Virus record (IMG/VR): IMGVR_UViG_2537562017_000016
From: a virus
Taxonomy: Duplodnaviria > Heunggongvirae > Uroviricota > Caudoviricetes
Direction: 5' to 3' (one strand)
DNA length: 8,671 bases
The notes below the pieces were generated by a model. It saw only the letters and a list, made by a program, of their open reading frames with translations. It did no database searches and had not been told where the DNA came from. Position numbers and translations under genes: made by a program. Positions 1 through 1,786 of this stretch are shown one piece after another; position 1 is the first letter of the stretch; the number at the start of each line of letters is the position of its first letter.

Positions 1-1256
1 GATTTGAATCCTCCGGCTCCGAGACGGTGCTCGGTACAGAAGTGAAATATGACACGCCGATCACCCGGACCATCACGTCGGCAAACATTGACCGTCTGCG
101 TTTTACTTTCGGCGTGCAGGCACTGGTGGAAACCACCTCAAAGGGGGACAGGAATCCATCGGAAGTCCGCCTGCTGGTTCAGATACAACGTAACGGTGGC
201 TGGGTGACGGAAAAAGACATCACCATTAAGGGTAAAACCACTTCACAGTATCTGGCCTCGGTGGTGGTGGATAACCTGCCGCCGCGCCCGTTCAGTATCC
301 GGATGCGCAGGATGACGCCGGACAGCACCACAGACCAGCTGCAGAACAAAACGCTCTGGTCGTCATACACCGAAATTATCGATGTGAAACAGTGCTACCC
401 GAACACGGCACTGTTCGGCGTGCAGGTGGACTCGGAGCAGTTCGGCAGCCAGCAGGTGAGCCGTAATTATCATCTGCGCGGGCGTATTCTGCAGGTGCCG
501 TCGAATTATAACCCGCAGACGCGGCAATACAGCGGTATCTGGGACGGAACGTTTAAACCGGCATACAGCAACAACATGGCCTGGTGTATGTGGGATATGC
601 TGACCCATCCGCGCTACGGCATGGGGAAACGTCTTGGTGCAGCGGATGTAGATAAATGGGCGCTGTATGTCATCGGCCAGTACTGCGACCAGTCGGTGCC
701 GGACGGCTTTGGCGGCACGGAGCCGCGCATCACCTGTAATGCGTACCTGACCACACAGCGCAAGGCGTGGGATGTGCTCAGTGATTTCTGCTCGGCGATG
801 CGCTGTATGCCGGTATGGAACGGGCAGACGCTGACGTTCGTGCAGGACCGACCATCAGATAAGGTGTGGACCTATAACCGCAGTAATGTGGTGATGCCGG
901 ATGATGGCGCGCCGTTCCGCTACAGCTTCAGCGCCCTGAAGGACCGCCATAATGCCGTTGAGGTGAACTGGATTGACCCGAACAACGGCTGGGAGACGGC
1001 GACAGAGCTTGTTGAAGATACGCAGGCCATTGCCCGTTACGGTCGTAATGTCACGAAGATGGATGCCTTTGGCTGTACCAGCCGGGGGCAGGCACACCGC
1101 GCCGGGCTGTGGCTGATTAAAACGGAACTGCTGGAACGCAGACCGTGGACTTCAGCGTGGGTGCCGAAGGGCTTCGCCATGTACCGGGCGATGTCATTGA
1201 AATCTGCGATGATGACTATGCCGGTATCCGCACCGGCGGGCGTGTGCTGGCGGTGA
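1..1256 (+). CDS. J: J fragment: intact J-like reading from the window edge to about 1136, then out-of-frame read-through to the stop at 1254-1256
   Basis: Six-frame ORF 27..1256 extended to the window edge (no stop upstream in this frame); J-like sequence ends at ...GLWLIKTELLE, after which the J reading (TQTVDFSVGAEG...) continues in another frame. Confidence 0.55.
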   Translation, partial: FESSGSETVLGTEVKYDTPITRTITSANIDRLRFTFGVQALVETTSKGDRNPSEVRLLVQIQRNGGWVTEKDITIKGKTTSQYLASVVVDNLPPRPFSIRMRRMTPDSTTDQLQNKTLWSSYTEIIDVKQCYPNTALFGVQVDSEQFGSQQVSRNYHLRGRILQVPSNYNPQTRQYSGIWDGTFKPAYSNNMAWCMWDMLTHPRYGMGKRLGAADVDKWALYVIGQYCDQSVPDGFGGTEPRITCNAYLTTQRKAWDVLSDFCSAMRCMPVWNGQTLTFVQDRPSDKVWTYNRSNVVMPDDGAPFRYSFSALKDRHNAVEVNWIDPNNGWETATELVEDTQAIARYGRNVTKMDAFGCTSRGQAHRAGLWLIKTELLERRPWTSAWVPKGFAMYRAMSLKSAMMTMPVSAPAGVCWR

Positions 1257-1786
1257 ACAGCCAGACCCGGACGCTGACGCTCGACCGTGAAATCACGCTG
1301 CCATCTCCGGACCACGCTGATAAGCCTGGTTGACGGAGGGATCCGGTCAGCGTGGAGGTCAGTCCGTCACCGACGGCGTGAAGGTAAAGTGAGCCGTGTT
1401 CCTGACGGCGTTGCGATACAGCGTTGGGGGCTGAAGCTGCCGACGTGCGCCAGCGCCTGTTCCGCTGCGTGAGTATCCGTGAGAACGAGACGGCACGTAT
1501 GCCATCACCGCCGTGCAGCATGTACCGGAAAAAGAGGCCATCGTGGATAACGGGGCGCACTTTGACGGCGACCAGAGCGGCACGGTAATGGTGTCACGCC
1601 GCCAGCGTGCAGCACTGACCGCGAAGTCACGCAGACAGCGGGGAATATCAGGTGCTGGCGCGTGGGACACCCGAAGGTGGTGAAGGGCGTGAGCTTCCTG
1701 CTTCGCCTGACCGTGGCAGCGGATGACGGCAGTGAGCGGCTGGTCAGCACGGCCCGGACGGCGGAAACCACATACCGCTTCAGCAA

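Follow-up and report, generated by a model that had tools for sequence, protein, structure and literature searches.

The window analysed here, 8,671 bp in length, is the entire contig APWY01000131.1 of the draft assembly GCA_000358895.1 of Escherichia coli 178200, and it covers the right end of a lambdoid prophage, with the genes in the order J-lom-stf-tfa-pin (Table 1). The contig begins inside J, whose 5' end is truncated by the contig edge with about 238 nt of the gene absent, and it ends about 300 nt past the pin-type gene. The same module is found in complete genomes at the Qin or Rac sites, adjoining ydfK/ynfT/ydfJ or ydfK/ynaM/uspF; the median number of J places in an E. coli genome is 2, and most E. 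coli have at least two J genes. As deposited, the J of the window is broken, and gene calls return it as two pieces, 3-1256 and 2114-3139.

Table 1. Features of the 8,671-bp window and the evidence on which each is placed.
Feature	Coordinates	Strand	Basis
J (tail-tip/host-specificity)	1..3139	+	end-to-end alignment with annotated gpJ genes
Dropped-base interval in J	1135..1782	+	alignments to L001, L173 and L174
Core segment explained by alleles A and B	1290..1680	+	common subsequence of both
lom (Ail/Lom outer-membrane protein gene), 3 dropped bases	3206..3802	+	alignments, gene calls
stf (side tail fibre), 3 dropped bases	3867..7091	+	alignments to panel and references
tfa (tail fibre assembly), without lesions	7091..7675	+	gene call, Pfam Caudo_TAP; tfaQ/tfaR in matching genomes
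pin-type DNA invertase, without lesions	7786..8376	-	gene call, Pfam Resolvase/HTH_7; pinQ/pinR in matching genomes

Terminator-like hairpins with T runs lie at 3157-3176, directly 3' of J, and at 3829-3850, directly 3' of lom; because the hairpins directly follow both genes, lom would be flanked by its own terminators. The convergent spacer between tfa and pin (7663-7761) is unrelated to the spacer of the reference prophages, and it holds an inverted repeat (7684-7700 / 7706-7722; 17 nt, 94% complementary, 5-nt loop) that is possibly a two-way terminator. Clusters of indels seen against some references at 7663-7761 and 6401-6417 were set aside, as these are divergent, non-homologous patches and not lesions.

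Missing bases in J, lom and stf

To place the lesions of J, window 1000-1950 (951 nt) was used as the query; its aligned counterpart in the intact gpJ genes of over 4,300 E. coli genomes measures 973 nt, and the best J match for global alignment is that of E. coli MB30 (locus L001). Alignment to intact J reveals that 22 bases are missing at 20 junctions within 1135-1782. These junctions lie after 1135, 1304, 1310, 1336, 1338, 1340 (two bases), 1358/9, 1385 and 1414 (two bases) in the first half, and after 1424, 1445, 1488, 1586, 1606, 1614, 1621, 1630, 1662, 1670 and 1782 in the second. The alignments to intact J genes show no insertions and no larger indels in 1135-1782, and no indels in the rest of J (1-1134 and 1783-3139); there are no IS elements in the lesion interval and no substitutions relative to MB30 over 1300-1800. 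Across the whole contig the tally is 28 deletions and 0 insertions.

The original prediction had described 19 deletions in this part of J, based on hops of the reading frame. The cluster is present in the deposited sequence, and each of the 19 hops lies 0-3 nt from an aligned junction; it is the count that changes, to 22 bases at 20 junctions, because the four bases lost at 1336-1340 had been read as one hop. That the interval has no insertions, no larger indels and few substitutions, as had also been described, agrees with the alignment to intact gpJ. The fallback that was offered, in which J is dead and no tails can be made, is not supported: with the 22 bases put back, the J frame is open to its stop at 3137-3139.

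The sequence on either side had been called clean. This holds for positions 1-1134 and 1783-3139 of J, but the lesions are not confined to J, and six more bases are missing further along: lom lacks two after 3439 and one after 3478, and stf lacks one each after 4221, 4239 and 4257. The lom losses create a false stop at 3467-3469, and two ORFs are called for the gene, 3206-3469 and 3500-3802; the N-terminal lom fragment has been deposited as ENG83932.1. The three stf losses are spaced 18 nt apart and restore the frame, with about 13 false residues in the product where the reference reads AVAQNTAAAKKSAS. This stf product (WP_071597468.1 / UniRef100_UPI0008FBF9DB) is a singleton cluster among roughly 15 billion proteins. 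Among complete genomes the best stf match, in strain HCP6S3_I1 at 99.7%, has one place only, and so offers no second copy of a near-identical module for direct comparison.

Two intact alleles and the polymorphism of the missing positions

A search of complete genomes with window 1290-1680 returned 200 records in the top identity band of 95-99%, and the matches listed for this segment are all at 95.1%, which corresponds to 411 aligned columns of which 391 match and none is a mismatch. Six loci fetched from the 95.1% band fall into two allele classes: allele A is the E. coli MB30 type (L001), and allele B is that of E. coli 2013C-3264 and C7 (L088/L089). Over window 1290-1680 each allele measures 411 nt, with 22 positions distinguishing the two; the reading frame is open in both, and their translations differ by just 3 amino acids. 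Their longest common subsequence has 391 nt, which is the size of the window segment, and the window segment is a subsequence of both alleles, with 0 mismatches and 0 substitutions against either one. The differences between A and B and the gaps in the window coincide in both directions over 1290-1680, and the remainder of the segment is identical to both alleles. As read from these sequences, the merging of two alleles with loss of the positions at which they differ is demonstrated. The original prediction had preferred an artefact over decay and had listed a collapsed repeat among the possible causes, and the finding that the segment is exactly what two real J alleles have in common as a subsequence strongly supports that part of it.

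The perfect fit is confined to 1290-1680, since no single allele pair in a panel of 91 loci covers the whole of 1135-1782; the strain's own alleles must therefore be mosaics of the A and B types. The gpJ of 2013C-3264 (L088; NZ_CP027544.1, 1325470-1328867) is annotated as 'frameshifted', and the 1.2 kb of it examined is open, so that its lesion is elsewhere in the gene; C7 has the same allele B within an intact J.

One short patch bears on how the differences were lost. The patch is AAGT in A and GCAG in B, and the window retains the AG common to both, which indicates a gapped alignment of the longest-common-subsequence kind, since the ungapped removal of mismatched columns would leave 389 nt. 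A related explanation is that ambiguity codes or N were written at the two-allele positions of a collapsed repeat and that the non-ACGT letters were later stripped. It too predicts lesions that are deletion-only, lie at allele differences and come without substitutions. It would, however, have removed all 22 mismatched columns of 1290-1680, and the window segment, at 391 nt, is longer than that and keeps the AG; we consider this explanation very unlikely.

The missing positions are also distinguished by their natural variability. Among five intact references, 12 of the 22 are variable, compared with 8% of positions overall, which suggested that the gaps mark sites of J allele difference. An independent J panel was then drawn from IMG/VR, its members selected for how closely their proteins resemble that of the intact gene, independently of any resemblance to the window; among its 69 distinct alleles every one of the 22 dropped columns is polymorphic, against a background of 153/682 (p=1.5e-15). 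With the gaps placed by a blind aligner, the same 69 alleles give 18/22 polymorphic columns (p=2.8e-9). Codon position 3 accounts for 18 of the 22 dropped columns (p=4e-6). Random sequencing error or random decay would not give such a bias toward polymorphic and third codon positions.

The lesions in lom and stf largely follow the same pattern. Natural lom alleles read CAG-CTG-ACC or CAG-ATT-ACC, and the base common to both, T, is the one that the window keeps; GTG and GTT variants of the third lom site are present in the panel. The stf positions 4221 (T/C) and 4257 (A/G) are polymorphic in the panel. At stf 4239 no polymorphism was found, with A in all 55 panel loci, and it is the sole such site among the 28 lesions.

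Elsewhere in IMG/VR, one locus (L035; IMGVR_UViG_2872698443_000005, J at about 1181-1949) has a 770-nt segment that is one base short, the only such case among the 80 IMG/VR loci of the first panel; this shortfall could be another assembly lesion or a true frameshift.

Every deletion had originally been placed at a homopolymer, with undercalling of runs as the mechanism. With allele A as the reference, 14 of the 22 stand alone, outside any run; those in runs of at least two number about 8-9 of 22 by allele A and 11 of 22 by allele B, with a background of 39%. Most of the indels thus lie outside runs, with no enrichment, and homopolymer undercalling is refuted because the prediction's own test, the occurrence of indels away from homopolymers, came out positive. 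That each lesion could be mended by extending the base next to it is uninformative, as this fits any one-base gap.

Random base-calling errors in general, whether from homopolymer undercalling, which the run-length analysis rules out, or from a stretch of low coverage or low quality, would account for lesions that are deletion-only, clustered and private to one assembly, as well as for the 8-9 of 22 missing bases that lie within short runs. Such errors are nevertheless a highly improbable source, given the lack of homopolymer enrichment (9/22 against the 39% background); nor would they fall only on polymorphic columns (p=1e-9 to 1e-15) or third positions (p=4e-6), or reproduce the exact differences between A and B. 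The sequencing platform also argues against them. Sibling strains were sequenced on the Illumina HiSeq2000 with 300-bp inserts at more than 200x coverage and assembled with Celera Assembler (PMC4462620; PMC4309559), and strain naming and the accession series suggest that 178200 belongs to this Celera-assembled project. Illumina reads at more than 200x make a homopolymer-prone platform and low coverage unlikely, and point instead to an assembler of the overlap-layout-consensus type, in which mismatch of a few percent is tolerated. Low coverage, which had been proposed as a possible cause, accordingly sits poorly with the >200x Illumina data of the sibling strains (PMC4462620), to whose project 178200 probably belongs. 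Unpolished long-read errors in a repeat were dropped as a candidate as well, the lesions being on polymorphic third codon positions and the platform being Illumina.

Occurrence in other genomes and in a second draft assembly

The lesions are not shared by complete E. coli genomes: the best of 10,322 matching J places in 4,489 such genomes is at 95.1% (391/411), which is the score of an intact allele, and none of the 10,322 beats it. Neither the species-representative genomes nor the metagenome collection contains an exact 41-mer that spans several of the lesions. This 41-mer has one occurrence in IMG/VR, in a 5,550-bp contig of E. coli P0304777.13 (L175; IMGVR_UViG_2534682095_000012).

In J the P0304777.13 contig has 45 lesions, again deletion-only, in another interval (L001 coordinates 7628-8437); polymorphic sites account for 36 of these (p=3e-17) and third codon positions for 34. 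Eleven missing bases are common to the two contigs. At the window's other 11 sites the P0304777.13 contig is intact, and it is B-type at the nine of these that lie within 1445-1670; the window in turn is intact at the other 34 lesion sites of P0304777.13. Over window 589-1048 and 1244-1687 the two contigs have 0 mismatches. Since the two sets of lesions are not nested, they are not inherited real deletions, and the P0304777.13 contig is a replicate of the phenomenon and not a confirmation of the deposited bases.

Two further observations concern this contig and its relatives. Isolate P0304777.7 has a J fragment of 57 aa that falls in one cluster with a fragment from the P0304777.13 contig, and further assemblies of that project may be affected. 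Between the tail genes I and J the P0304777.13 contig has about 430 extra bases compared with E. coli MB30; this extra DNA encodes, at 3502-3852 on the minus strand, a 116-aa protein, named lipoprotein or conserved phage protein in E. coli S88, and has the look of a moron-type insertion.

Genuine decay, in which the bases are truly absent, J is a dead pseudogene of a cryptic prophage and lom is broken too, has precedent in Rac, Qin and other cryptic prophages, whose decayed tail genes are established knowledge, and the 11 missing bases found again in P0304777.13 could be taken in its favour. The character and distribution of the lesions make it exceedingly doubtful. The interval is free of substitutions, insertions, larger indels and IS elements; 0 of the 10,322 J places in complete genomes score above the intact allele; the lesions match the A/B differences one for one; and the stf and lom lesions are frame-restoring triplets at polymorphic sites (stf 4239 being the invariant one). 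The P0304777.13 contig itself speaks against decay, as it is without the window's other 11 lesions and has 34 where the window is intact, a non-nested arrangement. True absence through recombination of diverged J copies, in which a long heteroduplex and an unknown repair process removing one base per mismatch would yield a hybrid J equal to the parents' common subsequence, would have to have been repeated independently in P0304777.13, and its probability is close to negligible.

Origin of the missing bases and its consequences

We conclude, with a probability of roughly 93%, that the lesion cluster in J is an artefact of merging two prophage copies into one consensus, and neither sequencing noise nor decay. 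Two paralogous tail modules of lambdoid prophages would have supplied the reads, or the intermediate contigs, for this contig, such that stretches of two J paralogues, 3-5% apart, overlapped and were merged. Each mismatch between the copies would have been laid out in the gapped multiple alignment as two half-filled columns; if the consensus calls a gap for every half-filled column, only the columns on which the copies agree are retained, and a copy-to-copy SNP becomes a one-base 'deletion' and never a substitution. The step responsible was probably the overlap/consensus stage of Celera Assembler, and the published descriptions of the project (PMC4462620; PMC4309559) suggest a pipeline common to 178200 and P0304777.13. 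The extent of the event may have been a whole-contig collapse of two copies, or an overlap of several hundred bases that joined two copy-specific pieces.

This merging of two copies would imply that both alleles are present in the source genome, with two J copies in 178200 and a doubled read depth; the median of 2 J places and the short, stand-alone nature of the contig support this indirectly. Several points stand against the merging. A majority vote at more than 200x should pick one allele, so that a specific behaviour of the consensus step would be required; in addition, stf 4239 is invariant, and no allele pair in the database spans 1135-1782. On this reading both of the real J copies are probably intact, and the database artefacts comprise the broken J, the two-part lom and the aberrant stf product.

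Errors of this general kind are known. As described in the Pilon paper (PMC4237348), reads that derive from several instances of a repeat give mixed evidence wherever those instances differ. Like other collapsed-repeat errors, the present case involves a short repeat-derived contig with its problem sites exactly at the differences between copies and with lesions peculiar to one assembly; the same type of lesion is seen again in a second draft from the project. Mixed evidence at the differences within collapsed repeats being known, what is unusual here is only that a base is dropped at every mixed site. Whereas the usual collapsed repeat is given an arbitrary or ambiguous base, nothing is emitted at each mixed site, and the consensus is the longest common subsequence of the copies.

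The clustering of frame-breaking one-base indels in a conserved gene also resembles the homopolymer miscalls of flow-based or nanopore sequencing; unlike these, the lesions in J show no enrichment in runs and no insertions, fall on polymorphic third codon positions and come from what are probably Illumina reads (PMC4462620, by way of the strain's likely place in that project). With Rac and Qin of E. coli K-12 the window shares its neighbourhood and gene order in the matching genomes. Real prophage remnants of that type, however, have large deletions, IS insertions and substitutions that are common to relatives, while the J lesions are all losses of one base, are not shared, and can be predicted in full from two intact alleles.

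For the biology of this prophage, the analysis leaves no evidence of damage to J, lom or stf. What it provides is a diagnostic signature: the sequence is identical to the longest common subsequence of a pair of natural alleles, and its lesions are deletion-only and lie at synonymous polymorphic sites. A large ETEC sequencing project has at least two assemblies with this signature of an artefact. Protein-like database entries have already been produced in this way, including WP_071597468.1, split Lom proteins such as ENG83932.1, and fragments of J. Where such draft assemblies are used, phantom lesions will inflate pseudogene counts, prophage-integrity calls and protein clustering, and the practical value of the finding is to caution users of these draft assemblies against phantom frameshifts and proteins.
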